This document shows, piece by piece, positions 2,469-61,983 of a stretch of DNA of 64,000 nt (positions are counted from its first letter, which is position 1; every line of letters starts with the position of its first letter). Origin of the DNA: an uncultured delta proteobacterium (GTDB lineage: Bacteria > Desulfobacterota > Syntrophobacteria > BM002); assembly GCA_963712115.1 (NCBI GenBank), contig CAVQGX010000031.1:160001-224000 (forward strand), given 5' to 3'. The position numbers and the translations under genes are program-made. Under the pieces are notes generated by a model, which worked only from the letters and a program-made list of their open reading frames with translations, searched no databases and was not told where the DNA came from.

Positions 2469-3119
2469 AGCTCTCACAGAGACCACAGAGTACTCAGAGA
2501 ACTAAAACCAGTCAGAATGAGGGACAGCAGTGATTAGGTAGGGATCGCTCAAAAGCTCATTGGAGATCCCTTGAAGACTAGAATAAACAAGCCCATTCTC
2601 GTCCTCAAGGTATCTCCAATGGTACGATGCATTCGCATCAGCAGCCCCTGCTGCACAGGGGACTTTGAGCGATCCAGGCGCACACCATAATATTTTTTTG
2701 GGGAGCTCACCGAGGATTTTAGAGACCACAGGGGACGGTCGGAACTTTCCTGAAAGACTGGATTACTAGGATAATCATTGCCCCGAAGGTAACCGACTAG
2801 ATTATTACACTATTGATCTATCGCTTAGAGGGCTCAATGAAACTCTGAGGTCTCGTACATCAAGTCGGATGAAGGTCGAGTTACTCATAGAGAGAACGGA
2901 GCGCTTATAGGCAAAGTGGGGAGGGCTGGATGTCCGGAATGAGCTTGCTTGTTCTGGACATCAAGGTCTCCCCACGTGTCCCGACGCTGTAGCGTCGGGA
3001 CCGCCCGCTTTGCGGGTGCCGATAAACGATCCCAACACTTTCACCTGCACAGTTTTCTCTGCGTTCTCTGTGGGCTCTAGCGAGCCCTGAGCCTGCCGAA
3101 GGGGGAGCGGGCGAGAGCT
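2469..3119 (+). mobile_element. Structured inverted-repeat element copy 1 (two four-way-junction modules, GxxExxY gene remnant)
   Basis: Ends AGCTCTCACAGAG... and ...CTCTGTGGGCTCT-hairpin-GAGCGGGCGAGAGCT; modules 2542-2675 and 2898-3032; homologous to 14832-15818, 48592-49073, 55015-55302. Confidence 0.7.
2745..2784 (+). pseudogene. Remnant of the 3' end of a GxxExxY gene
   Basis: 32/40 nt match to 15441-15480 by eye; translates FLKDWITRII versus LLKDGITRII. Confidence 0.65.
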
Positions 3120-7735: not shown

Positions 7736-7770
7736 GGTTATCAATTCCCCAGTTAGTTTGGTCAATTCTC

Positions 7771-8199
7771 ACCACGAAGATCACGAAGACAGAAGCCGTT
7801 ATAATACCATTCGTTTAATTCCATGTTTCATGTACTTCACATTAAAATTCATCAAAAGCCCGATTGATATACCAGACAACTTCATATATGTAAGTAACTG
7901 GGCTTGGTGAACTGGCAGAACTTTATCCACGCTCTTAAGTTCAACTATAATGGTTTTGTCTATAAACAAGTCGACACGATAACCGCAGTCGAGCTTTATA
8001 CCCTTGTATTCTACAGGCAAAGGGTGTTGTAGTTTGAACGGTATCCCCGCATTTGTCAGCTCATGAGCAAGGCACTGCTCATACGTGGATTCAAGTAATC
8101 CAGGGGCCAGATGCCTATGGACCTCTAGAGCACAGCCAATAACTTGGTTTGACAGTTTATCGAACTTCATTCTTCGTGCCCCTTCGTGTCCTTCGTGGT
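7771..8199 (-). mobile_element. GxxExxY element bounded by ACCACGAAG / CTTCGTGGT inverted repeat arrays, inserted in RND operon
   Basis: Left arm ACCACGAAGATCACGAAGACAGAAG (7771-7795), right arm CTTCGTGCCCCTTCGTGTCCTTCGTGGT (8172-8199); ORF-less relative at 58503-58579. Confidence 0.65.
7799..8170 (-). CDS. GxxExxY protein (PD-(D/E)XK nuclease superfamily)
   Basis: GLLESTY motif, RVDLFID..IIVELK, QLLTYMK..GLLMNF; ATGA overlap with upstream stop. Confidence 0.93.
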   Translation of the reverse strand: MKFDKLSNQVIGCALEVHRHLAPGLLESTYEQCLAHELTNAGIPFKLQHPLPVEYKGIKLDCGYRVDLFIDKTIIVELKSVDKVLPVHQAQLLTYMKLSGISIGLLMNFNVKYMKHGIKRMVL

Positions 8200-9636
8200 T
8201 TGATCTTTTTGCCCAAGCATAACCGGTCCTGGATCTCCCCAGCCTCCTCCAAGAGCCCGGTGGAGATTGACACGGTTGTTCAGAAGGGTGAAGTCCACCT
8301 GCAAGAGGTCACGTTCGGCCTCAAAGCGGGTTCTCTGTGTGTCCAGCACCGTGAGAAAATCAGTAAGACCCTTTTCGTATCGACTCTCAGCAAGCCTTTG
8401 CGCCTCCCTGGCCTCGTGCAGAAAAGTAACTACATATTCCCGACGTTTCAACTGTTCTTCCCGTGTCAAAAACGCTCCTTCCACTTCGGCAAAAGCGGTG
8501 AGCACTGTCTTGGCGTATTCGGCCACACCCTGTTGATATCTGGCCTCGGCCGCGCGTTGAGCAGCCTGCAATTTACCCGCGTCAAACAATGGCTGTGCAA
8601 TCCCGGCGGCAATACTCCACAACTCATTTTCGGGCTTGAAAAGCCGGTCTAGATCATCGCTGGTGTAACCGTAAGTGGAGGTCAAAACAATCCGGGGAAA
8701 GCGGCTGGCCTTGGCCGCGCCTACTAAGGCATTCAGCGCCACCAGTTGTTCCTCCGCCGCTCTGATGTCCGGCCGCCGAAGCAGCAGCTCGGAGGGAAGG
8801 CCTGGCGGGACTGGGTCTAACCGTTTGTAATAGTCTTCCGGTTGGAGCCTTGGAGGCCTAGTCTCTGGATAGCTTCCAAGAAGGACGGACAATGCCTGCT
8901 GCGTTGTACCCAAGTCCTGTCGCAGGGATGGCAGAGTTGCTTCAGCCCCGGCCAGAACCCTGCGAGCCTGTCTAACATCCAAGACCGAGGTCAGACCTCT
9001 TTTATATCTACTTTCCACCAGATTTAAGCTGCGACGAAAGGACTCGATGAGCTTTATGTCAATATCGATTGCCCGCTCAAACGTCTCCATTTGTAAATAT
9101 AGGGTGACAGTCTCCGCCACCACGGTCTGGGCCACGGTGCGGCGGTTCTCCTCTGCCTGCAGGAGATTGGCCCGCGCCGCCTCTTCTGCCCGGGCAAGAC
9201 GACCCCACAGGTCAATCTCGAAGGAAGCAGGCAAAGCCAAATCATATGTCGTACTTGTTCTATCGATGGAAACTGAATTCGGCTTGGGTATTTGCCGCCG
9301 CTCCACTCCAGCCTCAACGCCCACCTGGGGAAAACGCTCCGCTCGCGTCGAAACCAGTTGCGCTCGCACCTCCAGCACCGCCGCTGTAGCCCTCTTTATA
9401 TCCAGGTTGTTCTTCAGCACCTGTTCCACCAATTGGTTCAACTCGGGGTCATTGAACACACGCCACCATTGGTCGTCGGGCGCCGGCATGACTAGTTCGG
9501 TGGGAGTGTACTGGTAATCAGCAGGCACTTGGAAGCCAACGTCTGGTCGATGGTAGTCTGGACCCATTTTGAAGCAGCCACTTATAGTCAAAGAGATAGC
9601 TAGTACCGCACTTAAATATAGAAATAGTCTCTTCAC
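8167..9636 (-). CDS. Outer membrane efflux lipoprotein (NodT/OprM/TolC family)
   Basis: Lipobox ISGC, PDY.RP, WW..FNDP.L, GLPSELLLRRPDI, ALGGGW. Confidence 0.95.
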   Translation of the reverse strand: MKRLFLYLSAVLAISLTISGCFKMGPDYHRPDVGFQVPADYQYTPTELVMPAPDDQWWRVFNDPELNQLVEQVLKNNLDIKRATAAVLEVRAQLVSTRAERFPQVGVEAGVERRQIPKPNSVSIDRTSTTYDLALPASFEIDLWGRLARAEEAARANLLQAEENRRTVAQTVVAETVTLYLQMETFERAIDIDIKLIESFRRSLNLVESRYKRGLTSVLDVRQARRVLAGAEATLPSLRQDLGTTQQALSVLLGSYPETRPPRLQPEDYYKRLDPVPPGLPSELLLRRPDIRAAEEQLVALNALVGAAKASRFPRIVLTSTYGYTSDDLDRLFKPENELWSIAAGIAQPLFDAGKLQAAQRAAEARYQQGVAEYAKTVLTAFAEVEGAFLTREEQLKRREYVVTFLHEAREAQRLAESRYEKGLTDFLTVLDTQRTRFEAERDLLQVDFTLLNNRVNLHRALGGGWGDPGPVMLGQKDQTTKDTKGHEE

Positions 9637-14831: not shown

Positions 14832-15818
14832 ATCTCTCACAGAGCTCACAGAGTTCTCAGAGTCCTGACGCACATCAAATAAAAAAATTTAAAGGAAACA
14901 TTGAAAGATCACTGATAGCTAAACGGGGATACCTTGAGGACCGGCACAAGCGAGCTTATACCCTCCCACAAGGTATCCCCGCATCTACCGATGCATTCGC
15001 ATCGGTAGGTCCTGCAGCGCATGAGACTTTCAGCGATCTTGGTGCACACTTCATTGGTTTTTTGGGAGCTCACGGAGGATTAAGAAGATCACAGGGGGCG
15101 CACATGGATTTAAACCAACTATCCTCACAAATCATCCAAGCTGCTACAGCAGTTCATAAAGAGCTTGGCCCTGGCCTGCTGGAATCTGTCTACCAAGCAT
15201 GCATTACGATTGAACTTGAAAAAATGGGGATAGAGTTCAAAGCTGAGGCTTCCCTGCCTATCTCTTACCGCGGCAAGAAATTAGATAAGCTGTTATTCCG
15301 CTTGGATCTACTGGTAGAAGACACGGTTATTGTGGAATTGAAATCAGTAGAAAAAGTGGAACCAGTGCATAAGAAACAGCTTCTCACCTATTTACGTCTG
15401 GCGCAGAAGCCACTTGGTCTGTTGATAAATTTCAACGAGTCTTTACTGAAGGACGGGATCACTAGAATAATCAACACCCCAGAGAGAAACGAATAAGAGT
15501 CGTCGGGTGCGACGTGATCACTCAGTGGACTCAAAAAAATTCTGGGAGCTCTTAATCCAACAAGACGAGTGAGAGGAGTAGAGATTCCTCAGGAAGGATC
15601 GCCTAGAGGCCAAGTGGGCAGCGCTTGGAGGACAGTAATAAGCTTGCTTATTCTGGCCACCAAGAGCTGTCCACTGTCACGATGCGTCAGCATCGGGGCC
15701 GTCCACTGTGCGGCAGTCTCTAGGCGATCCCGATACTTTGACCGACACATATTTCTCTGCGTTCTCTGTGAGCTCTAGCGAACCCTGAGCTTCGGCGAAG
15801 GGTGAGCGGGCGAGAGAT
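14832..15818 (+). mobile_element. Structured inverted-repeat element copy 2, full-length with GxxExxY nuclease gene
   Basis: Ends ATCTCTCACAGAGCTCACAGAG and CTCTGTGAGCTCT-hairpin-GAGCGGGCGAGAGAT; modules 14905-15040 and 15596-15730 flank the ORF. Confidence 0.75.
15104..15496 (+). CDS. GxxExxY protein (PD-(D/E)XK nuclease superfamily), 130 aa
   Basis: GLLESVY motif, RLDLLVEDTVIVELK, QLLTYLR..GLLINF; AGGGGG RBS before ATG 15104. Confidence 0.93.
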   Translation: MDLNQLSSQIIQAATAVHKELGPGLLESVYQACITIELEKMGIEFKAEASLPISYRGKKLDKLLFRLDLLVEDTVIVELKSVEKVEPVHKKQLLTYLRLAQKPLGLLINFNESLLKDGITRIINTPERNE

Positions 15819-47572: not shown

Positions 47573-48628
47573 ATGTATTATTCTTTGGCTTTCTTTGCCT
47601 GGCTTTCAGAACTTGTATCCACCAAGCGTGTCGGCTTACTTGGTCTGACTCTTTCAATCTCTAAGGTGAACACTTTGCGAAAGACCTCATTATATGCACT
47701 CATGGCTATTCACGTCGGCCTGGCCTCAGGTACTTATGTTTTTGCTAAGGCTGCCGCGGTTGGATTTCCTGATGCTGAAACCTTGACCCTCGCCCGGGCA
47801 TTGGGGGCTGCCCTAATCCTCCTGTTGCTTACTGGCTGGGTCATCCCCAAACCGCGGTTCGATCTCAAGCAATGGCTCCGGATATTAGTGTTTGGGATCC
47901 TTCTTGTGCCAATAAACCAGTACTTGTTCCTCCGAGGCCTCCGGCTCACAGTACCTAGCCATCCCGCCCTTTTTTATGCCTTGACCCCCTTGGGCGTGCT
48001 CATTCTTACCAGTGGACTGAGTCGAAGAATGCCATTAAAAAGAAAAATCCTGGGGGTACTTCTGGCGCTGGTTGGGGTCTACATCATTCTCCGACCCTGG
48101 GAAGGAGGCGAGGCCATTAAGGAGCTGCGCACAGGCGATTTATGGGTTTTGGCCGCCATGCTTGCCTGGGTGCTTTACACCGTCTTGGCTGGTCGCACTT
48201 GCCAGAACCATGATCCACGAGTTGTAACTGCATGGAGTCTCATATTGGGGGCGGTGGCCATGACCCCCATTGGGGGGTATTCCCTGCTGACTACGGATTA
48301 CGGGGGAATCCCACCTGCCGCTTGGGCTGGACTGGCCTATATGATCGTCCTGACCAGCGTAACAATGTTACTGGTTTGGAACGTGCTGCTCCGCTATCTG
48401 GGGCCGGTAGAGGTGGCAATCTGTACCAACGCCCAGCCACCAACTACAGCCGCACTCTCAGCTCTGATGGCTGCTGTTGGGTTGCTCTCCAGTGAACAGG
48501 ACCTGGGCCTGCTCTTCTGGCTCGGCATGATAACCATCCTCACCGGTGTTGTTCTGGTCCAGTTCAACAATGATTCGCCAGAGAACAGAATATCTCTCAC
48601 AGAGAGCACAGAGATCTCAGAGAGCTAA
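47573..48628 (+). CDS. DMT/EamA family transporter (true start probably near 47666)
   Basis: About ten hydrophobic segments, two EamA-like halves; last residues encoded by the left end of element copy 3. Confidence 0.85.
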   Translation: MYYSLAFFAWLSELVSTKRVGLLGLTLSISKVNTLRKTSLYALMAIHVGLASGTYVFAKAAAVGFPDAETLTLARALGAALILLLLTGWVIPKPRFDLKQWLRILVFGILLVPINQYLFLRGLRLTVPSHPALFYALTPLGVLILTSGLSRRMPLKRKILGVLLALVGVYIILRPWEGGEAIKELRTGDLWVLAAMLAWVLYTVLAGRTCQNHDPRVVTAWSLILGAVAMTPIGGYSLLTTDYGGIPPAAWAGLAYMIVLTSVTMLLVWNVLLRYLGPVEVAICTNAQPPTTAALSALMAAVGLLSSEQDLGLLFWLGMITILTGVVLVQFNNDSPENRISLTESTEISES

Positions 48629-49073
48629 AACCAGTCAGAATTATGAGCAGCAAAGATTAGGTAGGGATCGCTCAGAAGCTCATTGGAGATACCTTGAAGA
48701 CTAGAACAAACAAGCTCATTCTCGTCCTCAAGGTATCTCCAATGGTCCGATGCATTCGCATCGGCAGCCCCTGCTGCACAGGGACTTTGAGCGATCCTGG
48801 TATGTCCTCTATTGGTTTTTTGGAGCTCACTGAGGACGGCCGAGACCACAGGTAGAAGACAGGCCGTTGCCGCAAGATCCAAAAGAAGATAATCAATATC
48901 CAATTTATTCTGGCCATCAAGAGCTGCCCTCTGTCCAGATGCGCCAGCATCGGGGCCGCCCGCCCTGCGGGAGCTTCTAGGCGATCCCCGACACTCCCAT
49001 TAGCAGTTCATCTTTGTGCCCTCTGCGTTCTCTAGCGATCCTGAGCCCAAGCGAAGGGGAGCGGGCGAGAGAT
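48592..49073 (+). mobile_element. Structured inverted-repeat element copy 3 (module A plus 3' half of module B, no ORF)
   Basis: 48592-48850 closely matches 2469-2732; 48905-48988 matches 15648-15731; same terminal sequences. Confidence 0.72.
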
Positions 49074-49224
49074 TGAGTGGTTTTTCGTATTGACAATTCC
49101 TACATCGATTCTAATTTTACTTGAATACTTAGGGTTTCCCGATTTTAATTAATAATTGATAACTACAAGCGATCTGAATTGTTGGTCGACTTTGACAATG
49201 ACAATTCAGGGGGGAGGTTTTGAT

Positions 49225-53463: not shown

Positions 53464-54990
53464 CTATAAGCCTATGATTCTATAGATGCTGGACATATCC
53501 AGGTGATTGCGGAGGTGGGTGGCCAGTTTGTTGTATTGCTCTTCCTTCCAGTGGTGGAAAGATCTGAGTCTCTCTTTGGTGGGAACCAGATCATCACCCC
53601 TTAGAAACCGACTAATGAGGCGATGCCTCAAGCCATCGTTATCAAACAAGCCGTGCACATAAGTTCCCCATACGCGACCATCCTCTGAGACCAGGCCGTC
53701 TTGAACCCTTACCGGTCTGGAGTTACGTTCTGAAATCTCAAGGAGTGCGGTGGCGGATCCCAGAGTTCTGCTCCGCCCCATGTGTATCTCATAACCTCGT
53801 ATCTCCTCGTCTGGACCGGCCAGCTCTTGCCAAAGTACCCTAGCCTTAACCTGGGTAGTCACCTTGTCTCCCAGGAGTTCTGTCTCCATTTCCAGCAAGC
53901 CCAAGCCGGCAACCTCTTGCAGGTCGCTTTCCACGCCCATGGGATCCAACACCTTTTGGCCCAGCATTTGATACCCCCCACAGATGCCCACAACTGTGCC
54001 GCCCCGGGCATAAAATGCAATGATAGCCTCAGCGAGACCCTGGTTCTGCAAATAGCGCAGATCGTTTAGAGTATTTTTGCTGCCGGGCAAAATAACCAGG
54101 TCCATCTCAAATACTTGCTCAGGAGCAATGAAGTAGGTCAAGTTAACAGATGGTTCCTGCTCCAGGCTGTCAAAGTCCGTGTAGTTGGAAATGTGGGGCA
54201 GTCGAATAACACCAATTCGTACCTGCCCCTCTGGTCTTTTTTTTGCCTCCCGAATCTTCAGATCCAGGGCGACGCTGTCTTCCTCCGGGATGTGAATATC
54301 ATTAAAGTAGTGCACCAAACCCAAAACCGGTCTTTCGGTACGAGCCTCTATAAATTCCAGCCCTGAGCGCAGCAGGGAGGGATCGCCTCGAAACTTGTTT
54401 ATGATGAAACCCTTTATCAGTTCACGCTCTGGGGGAGTGAAAAGCTCCATATGTCCAACTATACTTGCAAAAACTCCTCCTCGATCTATGTCTGCCACCA
54501 AAATTACTGGGGCTGACACCCGCTCAGCCATAGAGAGGTTGACCAGATCCTTGTCTCTGAGGTTTATCTCGGCAGCACTGCCTGCTCCCTCCATTACCAG
54601 GACCTCGTATTTACTCTCCAACCGGCCATAGCTTTCCATGACCTGCGCCACCAGATCAGGTTTCTTTCTGTAATACTCCTCAGCGGTGAAATTACCCAGG
54701 ACCTTACCCTGCAGTATGACCTGGGAGCCTACGTTGGAGGTGGGCTTTAACAGGATCGGATTCATATCAATATGGGGCTCAATTCCTGCGGCCTCTGCTT
54801 GTACTACTTGAGCCCGGCCCATTTCACCACCTTCCGGGGTGATGAAAGAGTTTAGTGCCATGTTCTGAGCCTTAAACGGAGCCACCCTGTAGCCGTCTTG
54901 TTTTAGAATGCGGCAGAGCCCAGCCACCAGGATTGACTTGCCCACATCCGACCCGGTTCCCAGTATCATCAGGTTTTTTGCTCTAGGCAT
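53464..54990 (-). CDS. cobQ: Cobyric acid synthase
   Basis: GTGSDVGKS, PFKAQNMALNS, EGAGS.AEINL, ISNYTDF, GICGGYQMLG, GTYVHG. Confidence 0.97.
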   Translation of the reverse strand: MPRAKNLMILGTGSDVGKSILVAGLCRILKQDGYRVAPFKAQNMALNSFITPEGGEMGRAQVVQAEAAGIEPHIDMNPILLKPTSNVGSQVILQGKVLGNFTAEEYYRKKPDLVAQVMESYGRLESKYEVLVMEGAGSAAEINLRDKDLVNLSMAERVSAPVILVADIDRGGVFASIVGHMELFTPPERELIKGFIINKFRGDPSLLRSGLEFIEARTERPVLGLVHYFNDIHIPEEDSVALDLKIREAKKRPEGQVRIGVIRLPHISNYTDFDSLEQEPSVNLTYFIAPEQVFEMDLVILPGSKNTLNDLRYLQNQGLAEAIIAFYARGGTVVGICGGYQMLGQKVLDPMGVESDLQEVAGLGLLEMETELLGDKVTTQVKARVLWQELAGPDEEIRGYEIHMGRSRTLGSATALLEISERNSRPVRVQDGLVSEDGRVWGTYVHGLFDNDGLRHRLISRFLRGDDLVPTKERLRSFHHWKEEQYNKLATHLRNHLDMSSIYRIIGL

Positions 54991-55014
54991 GATCTTTGTT
55001 CTCCAGACTTTTCA

Positions 55015-55302
55015 ATCTCTCACAGAGCTCACAGAGAACTCAGAGAGCTCTTGAATATTAAAGCAGTGAGGTTGATTTGGTCCAGGAGAAGATCGCTTAA
55101 AGGCTAAATGGAGAGAGCCTGAAGCCAGGAACAAGCTTGCTTATTCCTGGCTTTCTGGGCCTCTCCATTTGTCCCGATAGCCATATGGGGACGCCCTGCT
55201 TTGCAGGGCTTTTTAAGCGATCCGGCTACATCCCCTAGTATCTTTTTCTCTGAGCCCTCTGAGGACTCGAGCGAGCCCGCAGAGCGGGTGAGCGGGCGAG
55301 AG
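55015..55302 (+). mobile_element. Structured inverted-repeat element copy 4 (minimal, single four-way-junction module)
   Basis: Same terminal sequences; module 55091-55222 with all four stems intact despite divergent sequence. Confidence 0.7.
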
Positions 55303-55305
55303 CCT

Positions 55306-56382
55306 CTAAAGTGCGGTCAAAAGCACATATGCTATGCCTACAATGACAATGCTGATCACTCTCAGCGTTTGCCCCAAAGCAATGAGCAGAATGCCGAGTT
55401 TGGGTCTGAATATCCCCATGTAATAGGGAAGCTGATGTCTCAGTGCTCTCACCGGTGTTGCTACCACATTTCCCAAGATCAAGGCGATAACCGTCTCCCT
55501 AATTGATAAAGTACCCGCATCCAGAAGAGCCCCTGCTGCTGCGAAACCGGAAGTGAACTCTGCTACCAAGCTGAAAATTACCACGCTCATTGCCTCCAGC
55601 GGTACCACAGCGGAGGTAATACCCCCTGCAAGCTTCAAGCGCAACCAGGTAAAAAAGCCTAACTGGCTGACTATCATAACCACCACGTAGACCGGAATTA
55701 CCAGCAGCATAATCCTTTGCAATCTTTTGAGGAACTTTTGCCAGGTGTCCTGCAAAATAGTCTTCCAAGATTGTCCTTCTCTCTTTTCTGCAGCCATTTC
55801 CAGGGGACGGGGCGAGAGTGTCAACCTCGAGTAAATCACCAGACCCGCCGTGCGTAACAAGGCGGCAACCAGGGTCAGAAGGAGGTACAGAAGCCCGGCC
55901 AAACCTGCCAGGGGAAGGATGATAAAAAACGTTGTAGGTAGATGAAGAAAATAGGCCGGCAAGCCGTTCAGCAGGCTGGTCAGAATCACTTCCTTTCTAC
56001 CAAGCTTGCCTTCCTCGTGGAAGGTAACCAACATGGCCTGAGCAGCTGTCCCGGAAACGAAGGCGGTGGTAAAAGAAGCTCCAGAGGAATCCGAAAGGTG
56101 GCCCCAGCGCATTAGCGGCCGGACAAGGGTTGAAAGGCGACCGGTCCAACCTGAGGCTTCAATAATTTGTCCGGCAAAAAGCCCTAAAGAAATTAGGAGA
56201 GTCATTCGTAGAAGCGGCTTGCCCAACCGTTTCCACAGAAAGGAGGGATCGCCAAAGGACGAAGATATGGCCGGATTGGCAAAAAAGAAAACCAGAAATG
56301 CCAGGAGCAAAAGAGCGGCAAGGATAACGTACAACAGCCAGGGTGAAGTCCTCTTCTTTGCTTTCGAATTGCCACTTTTCAT
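55306..56382 (-). CDS. Polytopic membrane protein with nucleoside-recognition (Gate) domain
   Basis: Hydrophobic; RPLMRWGHL, TTAFVSG, ALRHQLP.Y.GIF; lies in cobalamin cluster. Confidence 0.7.
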   Translation of the reverse strand: MKSGNSKAKKRTSPWLLYVILAALLLLAFLVFFFANPAISSSFGDPSFLWKRLGKPLLRMTLLISLGLFAGQIIEASGWTGRLSTLVRPLMRWGHLSDSSGASFTTAFVSGTAAQAMLVTFHEEGKLGRKEVILTSLLNGLPAYFLHLPTTFFIILPLAGLAGLLYLLLTLVAALLRTAGLVIYSRLTLSPRPLEMAAEKREGQSWKTILQDTWQKFLKRLQRIMLLVIPVYVVVMIVSQLGFFTWLRLKLAGGITSAVVPLEAMSVVIFSLVAEFTSGFAAAGALLDAGTLSIRETVIALILGNVVATPVRALRHQLPYYMGIFRPKLGILLIALGQTLRVISIVIVGIAYVLLTAL

Positions 56383-61632: not shown

Positions 61633-61717
61633 GCACCCAGTTTTCTTTGACCTCGAGTGGAGTCGGTATCCGCGTACCGCAAACCGGTAATTTTGCCATC
61701 ATCACCGATTGAGTAAG

Positions 61718-61975
61718 AACGGCAGGTCTTCTGGCTCTCCCGATCTCCGGCTCGCCTTCCCACCCCGCTTGGTCCCGAGTTATTTAGAGGGACTTACGAG
61801 ACAGTGACTTTAACCCCGGGCAGGTCTCTGTATGGGGATCTTCCAAGCCTGCTTCCCATCCCGGGGTATACCGAAAAATGACACCCCACCTGCGGTGAGG
61901 TCAGGATTACAGCGGCGGGACCGCTCCCGATTCGCACGGGATTCCCTTTTAACCCTTTCGGTACCGTCCTTTATT
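61718..61975 (-). promoter_or_regulatory. Cobalamin riboswitch
   Basis: Minus strand GGT..AAAAGGGAATCCCGTGCGAATCGGGAGCGGTCCCGCCGCTGT, GTCACTG, GGGAAGG, GAGCCAGAAGACCTGCC; upstream of cbiK operon. Confidence 0.93.
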
Positions 61976-61983
61976 AGCTGGAT

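Follow-up and report, generated by a model that had tools for sequence, protein, structure and literature searches.

A repeated four-way-junction module in an uncultured desulfobacterotal genome, probed as the possible folded-DNA core of a miniature foldback element related to GxxExxY nuclease cassettes

We analyzed a stretch of 64,000 nucleotides, referred to here as the window, from the genome of an uncultured delta proteobacterium (GTDB lineage Bacteria; Desulfobacterota; Syntrophobacteria; BM002; GenBank assembly GCA_963712115.1, contig CAVQGX010000031.1, positions 160,001 to 224,000 of the forward strand), in which the 132 nt at 55091-55222 had been described, from the sequence alone, as one copy of a conserved module shaped like a four-way junction. 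The explanation that we find best, and to which we give an even chance, is that this module serves as a folded core of DNA, acting in cis, in a miniature foldback element that descends from cassettes with a gene for a GxxExxY nuclease, and that the core is recognized when copies of the element are made, moved or retained. The anatomy of the element, its link to the gene, a series of deletion derivatives, its restriction to one lineage, the polymorphism of the sites that it occupies and the symmetry of its two strands are established directly.

Folding of the 132-nt module with RNA and DNA parameters returned the four helices that had been claimed for it, a closing stem (P1) and three hairpins (P2, P3 and P4), and the linkers are indeed nearly absent, the only unpaired nucleotides at the junction being two that lie between P1 and P2. 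As RNA, the plus strand has a minimum free energy (MFE) of −79.6 kcal/mol as compared to −40.75±4.01 kcal/mol for its dinucleotide shuffles (z −9.69), none of which (0 of 200) was as good. The minus strand as RNA reaches −76.3 kcal/mol (z −9.83), and with DNA parameters the plus and minus strands reach −44.9 (z −9.80) and −43.5 kcal/mol (z −10.06), respectively; for the remaining five copies in the window, folds with DNA parameters gave z values from −5.68 to −10.26. When the whole window was searched against Rfam 15, a cobalamin riboswitch was the sole match and no family reached its gathering threshold over the module, where even a permissive search gave a top score of 23.1 bits against a threshold of 70. 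Two other identities were considered and rejected: a tRNA-like element (ARAGORN, 0 genes in the window) and a cyanobacterial repeat origin of the HIP1 type, suspected from the GATCGC ends of the module, as GCGATCGC occurs 29 times in the 4.9 Mb of the genome when about 75 occurrences are expected.

A covariance model (R1) was built from the six full copies listed in the preliminary description, and in the window it recovered exactly those six, all on the plus strand and with scores of 112-135 bits; weaker minus-strand matches coincide with these copies and reflect the palindrome. The half copy reported beside them was recovered as well, as a weak seventh R1 match at 48834-48987 (32.4 bits) and by nhmmer at 48888-48987, where it covers model positions 35-134 only, and the sequences that had been quoted for the base of P2 in the copies at 2542, 2898, 14906 and 15596 are all present. 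The source genome (4.9 Mb in 70 contigs, 94% complete, 6% contamination; contigs are written here as C plus a number, the window being C31:160001-224000) contains in total 28 copies of full length and about 5 that are partial or weak, a count that may have missed a few, with 150 of 380 candidates scored. Module length ranges from 128 to 138 nt across copies. One truncated copy (C20:239777-239895), composed of the 5′ side of P1 and half of P2, adjoins a right arm and terminus of the kind described below; some way off, at about 1.3 kb, there is a weak Y1-transposase-like match, with no sign of a connection between the two.

Pairing in the module is kept while the paired bases change. In a structure-blind alignment (MAFFT) of the 28 copies from the source genome, with an average column identity of 68%, RNAalifold returned the same four helices, and two-sided changes were present at 28 of 38 pairs, as the preliminary description had led us to expect. 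Of the 1057 cells in these pairs, 88.0% can pair as compared to 76.9% after shuffling, and two-sided change was found in 135 cells as compared to 41.9 after shuffling and 24-35 when the partner was slid by one to three columns; none of 500 shuffles equaled any of the observed measures. A second alignment, of 67 copies taken from 14 related genomes, was made by fitting to the model and so leans toward the structure; there, 91.9% of cells pair, two-sided changes occur at 43 of 50 pairs, and two-sided change is seen in 440 cells as compared to 120 after shuffling and at most 79 after sliding, again with 0 of 500 shuffles equal. The more sweeping proposal, that structure rather than sequence is under selection, is supported in part: pairing is kept well beyond the controls, but some blocks of sequence are conserved too. 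In the 28-copy alignment, these blocks, each with an invariance of 90% or more, lie at the base of P1 (GGATCGC/GCGATCC), at the tip of P2 and in the CGAT/ATCG core of P3. The four-helix layout, the helix lengths, the junction and several sequence blocks are kept across three genera.

The module at 55091-55222 is the tip of a foldback of about 290 nt (55015-55304), and in RNA and DNA folds alike the sequence 55010-55310 forms a single extended rod that ends in the junction. The element has terminal inverted repeats (ATCTCTC.../...GAGAGAT) in addition to inverted arms of short repeated units, and its right terminus adjoins the stop codon (55306-55308) of a minus-strand gene, 55306..56382. Thirteen complete elements with arms of this CACAGAG type, sharing left- and right-end motifs, are present in the genome; 12 of them hold one or two modules, and the thirteenth, of 69 nt, is made of arms only. 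Complete elements measure 237-302 nt with a single module, 479-644 nt with a pair, and 742 and 984 nt with a gene. The flanks of all 33 copies bear either the CACAGAG pattern or other short-unit arrays (CCGCAGAC, CACGAAG and ACAGGAT types, mainly on C14). By a strict rule, which asks for one 5-mer three times at a spacing of 7-11 nt, an array lies at most 130 nt away from 22 of the 33 copies, as compared to 83 of 3000 random stretches.

A gene is linked to the module in a full-length relative at 14832-15818, in which two modules, A and B, are direct repeats that stand on either side of a GxxExxY gene and share its orientation; each of them, together with the sequence on either side, can be aligned to the solo unit 55015-55304. 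A second gene-bearing copy in the genome (C31:145025) has module A and the gene without B, and its orthologue in a sister genome that represents another species (G009) has the complete A-gene-B layout. Five further A/B pairs have no gene (2542/2898 and 48665/48888 in the window, C31:345620/345962, and one each on C1 and C9). We regard these pairs as internal-deletion derivatives because remnants of the nuclease gene persist in their spacers: two of the five spacers match the 3′ region of the gene, one of these matching its 5′ edge also, and a third matches the 5′ edge only. In the pair at 2469..3119, blastn aligns spacer positions 20-62 with 19-61, and 70-102 with 402-434, of the spacer in the full-length relative, and the last 18 codons of the gene are recovered by tblastn (E 0.004). 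Genus-wide, a module is present within 7 of the 29 PF13366 loci examined, in six directly beside the gene and in five of these six in the same orientation. In another genome of the set (G004), the site orthologous to the solo element at C31:357166 is occupied by an element whose arms differ, whose GxxExxY gene is of a different subfamily and which has one module after the gene. All five GxxExxY genes of the source genome lie between inverted arrays of a 7-9-nt unit; the three that are not accompanied by a module stand directly between inverted arm arrays, as minimal cassettes (C46:9416, C31:229316 and window 7799-8170). The last of these, a minus-strand gene (TIGR04256, 8.7e-45) between inverted CACGAAG-type arrays with flanks to about 7760-8230, sits inside an efflux-pump operon region and is nearly identical to the cassette at C31:229316.

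The module has a narrow distribution. In a search with stricter filters, in which 55 candidates per genome were scored, R1 matched 16 of 17 genomes of the same genus, 2 of 4 elsewhere in the family and 0 of 39 from other families of the class, and within the genus the number of matches per genome ranged from 0 to about 40. A pattern scan across named species gave at least 117 stretches; of 80 loci examined, 10 were confirmed by R1, and the six metagenome-assembled genomes (MAGs) that hold these ten are labeled Desulfobacteraceae, Syntrophobacterales or Desulfobacterota only. The other 70 failed to reach E 1e-6; 67 of them belong to other phyla and look like chance matches, and three are from similarly labeled MAGs. 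Among the genomes searched, the module family was thus found only in one family of uncultured Desulfobacterota-labeled MAGs. Sequencing runs that hold at least half of the words sampled from the locus came from estuary and marine-sediment metagenomes; four RNA runs hold less than half.

Within this lineage, the same site can be found in very different states. The site upstream of cobQ, which holds the copy at 55091-55222, could be compared in the 12 of 16 related loci that have both anchors. The full element is present in two genomes (G000 and G003), and in G010 (locus L058) exactly P2 is gone, cut at its base, with P1, P3 and P4 intact. Two genomes have arms and terminus only (G007 and G011), and the remaining seven have hairpins of unrelated, heptamer-like arrays (G002, G005, G006, G009, G012, G014 and G016). 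The arms-only allele exists in nature, as two contigs from one metatranscriptome run join 55044 to 55273, and the spacer between the EamA and isocitrate-lyase genes exhibits a similar turnover of states among sister genomes. The G010 copy is a natural three-way-junction derivative of the module. In 10-12 sister genomes, the spacers orthologous to 54991-55305 and 48629-49155 carry, in nearly every genome, a different hairpin of 7-9-nt units just after a gene end; these spacers seem to be landing or replacement sites re-used by many array families.

Whether the fold works as DNA or as RNA is the main question that the preliminary description had left between two choices, with G-T pairs on the plus strand mentioned as a feature of several copies. 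Such pairs are not special to that strand: they number 37 as compared to 45 A-C pairs in the source genome (p 0.44), and 99 as compared to 92 in relatives (p 0.66). An RNA made from one strand would be expected to have more G-U than A-C on that strand, and the lack of any overall excess leans toward DNA. The two strands also fold equally well, with summed MFEs for the 28 copies of −2048 (plus) and −2089 kcal/mol (minus). Within the source genome, the minus-strand fold is favored by 8-17 kcal/mol in the seven A-type modules, and the plus-strand fold by 8-19 kcal/mol in the five B-type modules. The counts of G-T and A-C there are 8:21 for A-type and 9:3 for B-type modules, in copies that are kin to each other. 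The B-type excess would suit an RNA, but the A-type bias is opposite, and neither recurs in relatives, where copies assigned by an automatic flank rule gave 6:7 (three A-like copies) and 26:19 (14 B-like copies).

A role as RNA, be it as an element in the transcript of the cassette, as a stabilizer or terminator of host transcripts in the case of solo copies or as a small non-coding RNA, nevertheless has to be taken seriously, although we hold it to be unlikely. In the cassette, modules 5′ and 3′ of the nuclease gene would serve as stabilizer, processing site or punctuation, in the manner of the stems of 23S rRNA intervening sequences, and the arrangement of the gene-adjacent modules (five of six co-oriented, with A upstream and B downstream) agrees with this, as do the very stable fold, the strong covariation and the C(UUG)G-type tetraloops found on P2 in several copies. 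By crude calls of open reading frames (ORFs) of at least 100 amino acids, all 33 copies are intergenic and most lie directly after gene ends (13 in convergent, 17 in tandem and 3 in divergent contexts), which also agrees with an RNA role; in tandem contexts the module has the orientation of the host genes at six loci and the opposite one at eight. Set against local GC skew, orientation is in agreement at about 14 loci and in disagreement at about 12, the skews being weak. A terminator scan found, beyond shuffled expectation, only the P4 hairpin of the copy at 55091-55222, where P4 and the T-run after it make a terminator pattern on the plus strand; the host genes there are on the other strand, and the pattern thus falls outside their transcript. 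No promoter-like site exceeded shuffled expectation, and no Rfam family was found. Contigs from four metatranscriptome runs, placed on 54400-55900, cover the flanking genes but leave the module almost bare, with a single contig of 95 nt (55181-55275, depth 2) over it; such contigs break at the repeated arms and cannot show ends, strand or absence, and the source may be DNA in the library.

Several results lean toward DNA in the choice between a non-coding RNA and a folded single strand of DNA: both strands fold equally, there is no asymmetry between G-T and A-C, no bias of host orientation and no Rfam match, and P2 has been lost exactly. Exact loss of a hairpin is the expected product of hairpin formation in replicating DNA, a well-known instability of palindromes, and the loss of P2 in G010 would fit such an event. 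We infer a reading of the fold as DNA, with the GxxExxY nuclease as the reader. In the mechanism that we propose, the fold would form when DNA is single-stranded in replication or repair, or else by extrusion, and the folded tip would act as a cis signal by which a copy could be recognized and propagated or retained; the recognizing agent might be the nuclease of the element acting in trans, or a host factor. Only lineages that keep all four helices would multiply, and compensatory changes would appear because selection acts among lineages of the element.

The product of 15062..15496 matches Pfam PF13366 (PDDEXK_3) at 1.7e-41 and NCBIfam TIGR04256 (“GxxExxY protein”) at 5.7e-43, and among 71 aligned family members the residues D82, E92 and K94 of the PD-(D/E)XK motif (D...ExK) are invariant or nearly so. 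At E 0.001 or better, the family comprises 20,191 representative clusters; PMC3424549 gives its function as unknown. A search of PDB sequences with the nuclease returned no relative (best E 0.64). An AlphaFold2 model from the single sequence (predicted local distance difference test, pLDDT, of 40.6) was set aside for one based on an alignment (pLDDT 92.2); with the latter, Foldseek found nothing at E 0.001 or better, and VIA-align gave 3ijm as its top match (Z 8.3), with the archaeal Holliday-junction resolvase Hjc (1gef) at rank 16 (Z 6.4). Many close relatives of the nuclease have about 270-295 residues and two matched stretches (P0001, P0003-P0007 and others), a layout that suggests two GxxExxY domains fused in tandem. 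In the most specific form of our explanation, the element's own GxxExxY nuclease would have the four-way junction, folded as DNA, for its substrate, and the element would spread by structure-specific recognition or cutting of the branched hairpin and subsequent host repair or hairpin-primed copying, with a single nuclease gene and no transposase, integrase or Rep gene. We regard this form as doubtful, with a low probability.

A number of observations weigh against a folded-DNA core that derives from GxxExxY cassettes and is read by their nuclease. As modeled, the nuclease has a generic restriction-endonuclease-like fold only, so a junction-specific enzyme is neither supported nor excluded by the model. 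Most modules have no gene nearby, and GxxExxY genes without a module account for 22 of the 29 loci in the genus and three of the five in the source genome; the pairing of module and gene may reflect the history of one sublineage rather than functional dependence. The module was found with at least three arm types and is not bound to a single set of ends. The direct repeats that flank the gene in its own orientation fit an RNA role in the transcript of the element as well. At the two orthologous sites examined, all genomes had some array hairpin in place, and neither an empty site nor a target-site duplication was found, there being no empty site to compare; the flanks are A+T-rich. Because every examined site is occupied, movement is something that we infer from differing site states and have not seen. 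Finally, compensatory changes can arise in DNA palindromes without selection, through template-switch correction.

This last point leads to the proposal that the module has no function of its own and is selfish or neutral palindromic DNA, its helices perfected by intrastrand template switching and recent copying. The symmetry of the strands agrees with this, the loss of P2 at its exact base is a classic outcome of hairpin slippage, and the existence of truncated and half copies, together with a range from 0 to about 40 matches per genome in the genus, agrees with it as well. However, the layout of four helices and the sequence blocks have persisted at 68% column identity and through three genera, and template switching perfects single hairpins, not three ordered hairpins within a closing stem. 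We therefore consider an absence of function to be quite improbable.

Integron attC sites raise a further comparison, since they are folded strands used by a site-specific recombinase, and the modules could likewise be recombination sites with genes held between co-oriented copies. Structure is conserved above sequence here too, the gene of the full-length relative is flanked by modules in direct orientation, and on C14 a run of modules spaced by 0.7-1.2 kb lies among small accessory genes that include toxin-antitoxin pairs. Within that run, however, orientation is mixed (8 plus and 3 minus), the intervening genes are ordinary or unrelated, and no recombinase is found among the 22 products scanned, an integrase not having been searched for genome-wide. 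The stem base, GGATCGC/GCGATCC, is not an attC-type core, and most copies are single and dispersed. Such a role thus appears extremely improbable.

More broadly, attC sites, the subterminal hairpins of IS200/IS605 insertion sequences and the T-shaped terminal repeats of parvoviruses are cis elements read as folded single-stranded DNA. The element resembles attC sites and the ends of IS608 in keeping structure above sequence and in having folded elements in direct orientation on both sides of its cargo, and it shares with parvoviral repeats a branched palindrome; unlike all of these, it has no associated integrase, Y1 transposase or Rep gene, and its modules are internal rather than at the ends. 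A small ORF within a long inverted-repeat stem also recalls those intervening sequences of 23S rRNA in which small ORFs are found, but the copies described here are intergenic rather than within rRNA genes, and nothing like the branched module is known from such sequences.

In its apparent way of working, the element is most like two other groups, the repetitive extragenic palindromic (REP) sequences with their BIME and REPIN arrangements, and the miniature inverted-repeat transposable elements (MITEs), yet it departs from both in several respects. REP, BIME and REPIN repeats of Proteobacteria, associated with RAYT transposases of the Y1 type, are thought to act as folded single strands. Like them, the module occurs in dispersed, intergenic, palindromic copies, mostly after gene ends, in mosaics of repeat types and in variable copy number. 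A REP unit is a hairpin of 20-40 nt, often in inverted doublets, whereas the unit here is a 132-nt four-helix junction in a foldback of about 290 nt, and the associated gene, unlike that of a RAYT, encodes a PD-(D/E)XK nuclease and lies inside the repeat. A link to RAYT genes was rejected: the genome has four PF01797 (Y1) matches, none of them on a contig with a full module. Two of the Y1 genes belong to ordinary IS200-like units, each with private end hairpins that are confined to the unit itself. As in MITEs such as Correia, bcr1 and Nezha, non-autonomous copies outnumber the few gene-bearing ones with which they share ends, and internal-deletion derivatives and terminal inverted repeats are present. 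In contrast to MITEs, the gene-bearing form encodes a protein of PD-(D/E)XK fold and no known transposase, and the ends are arrays of short units, the conserved part being an internal branched fold and not the inverted termini.

In the open-access literature, we found no description of an element that combines a junction module with a GxxExxY cassette, nor any of GxxExxY cassettes between inverted short-unit arrays. Small structured intergenic repeats are common in bacteria, and to our knowledge the agent that copies most of them is not known. The sequence described here ties a junction-shaped repeat to relatives whose sole gene comes from a very large family of unknown function, and this link hints at how such repeats spread. 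If the nuclease acts on the module, the GxxExxY family would gain a function and this class of repeat a mobilizing agent, and if the junction is its substrate, the element would reveal what a very large family of nucleases acts on. If instead the module works as RNA, it would represent a new class of structured RNA carried by a selfish cassette. The parts of the element and of its relatives in the window are listed in Table 1.

Table 1. Parts of the foldback element at 55015-55304 and of its relatives in the window (positions are those of the window).
Feature	Position	Strand	Basis or description
Four-way-junction module	55091-55222	+	Fold; model R1, 115.9 bits; covariation
P1, closing stem, 13 bp	55091-55103 with 55210-55222	+	Fold
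P2, long hairpin	55106-55170	+	Fold
P3, short hairpin	55171-55192	+	Fold
P4, short hairpin	55193-55209	+	Fold
Left terminus (ATCTCTC...) and left arm	55015-55050	+	Three tandem units of 9-12 nt containing CACAGAG
Units of left arm, direct-repeat family D1	55019-55030, 55028-55039, 55039-55050	+	Repeat search
Left linker	55051-55090	+	Imperfect pairing with right linker, extending P1 outward; homologous in other solo copies
Right linker	55223-55245	+	Ends in T-run that pairs with A-rich left linker
Right arm	55246-55268	+	Inverted copies of arm unit, CTCTGAG type; inverted repeats I1, I4 and I5 against left arm
Small terminal hairpin and right terminus	55269-55304	+	Ends ...GGGCGAGAG at 55294-55302
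Full-length relative, 987 nt	14832-15818	+	Left arm, module A, GxxExxY gene, module B, right arm, terminus
Module A of full-length relative	14906-15039	+	R1 match
Module B of full-length relative	15596-15730	+	R1 match
GxxExxY/PDDEXK_3 nuclease gene	15062..15496	+	Longest ORF; likely ATG start at 15104
Gene-less pair	2469..3119	+	Left arm, module A at 2542-2675, spacer of 222 nt holding remnants from the 5′ edge and final ~50 nt of the gene region, module B at 2898-3032, right arm
Gene-less pair with truncated B	48592..49073	+	Module A (48665-48797), half module B (48888-48987)

Some further features of the repeats and their surroundings deserve mention. The region of C14 from about 30 to 87 kb holds 11 of the approximately 33 modules of the genome, in mixed orientation and within mosaics of several array types; its accessory genes include toxin-antitoxin pairs (PIN/VapB and PIN/MazE-type), a PilZ protein, a DUF4143 ATPase and a DEAD helicase. 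Elements with CCGCAGAC-type arms form a subfamily in which the motif ATTGACA is conserved at about 60-70 nt 3′ of the module, with a CGCAGAC unit after it, and such sites are found downstream of four modules of C14 (C14:62779-62860, 74774-74850, 77413-77480 and 82428-82500). TTGACA is the consensus of the −35 promoter element, and the ATTGACA of this subfamily may be a candidate outward-facing promoter, on the strength of its motif. In the window, the cobalamin riboswitch (RF00174, 68.5 bits) lies at 61704-61983 on the minus strand, upstream of a cobalamin cluster that includes the genes flanking the module at 55091-55222.

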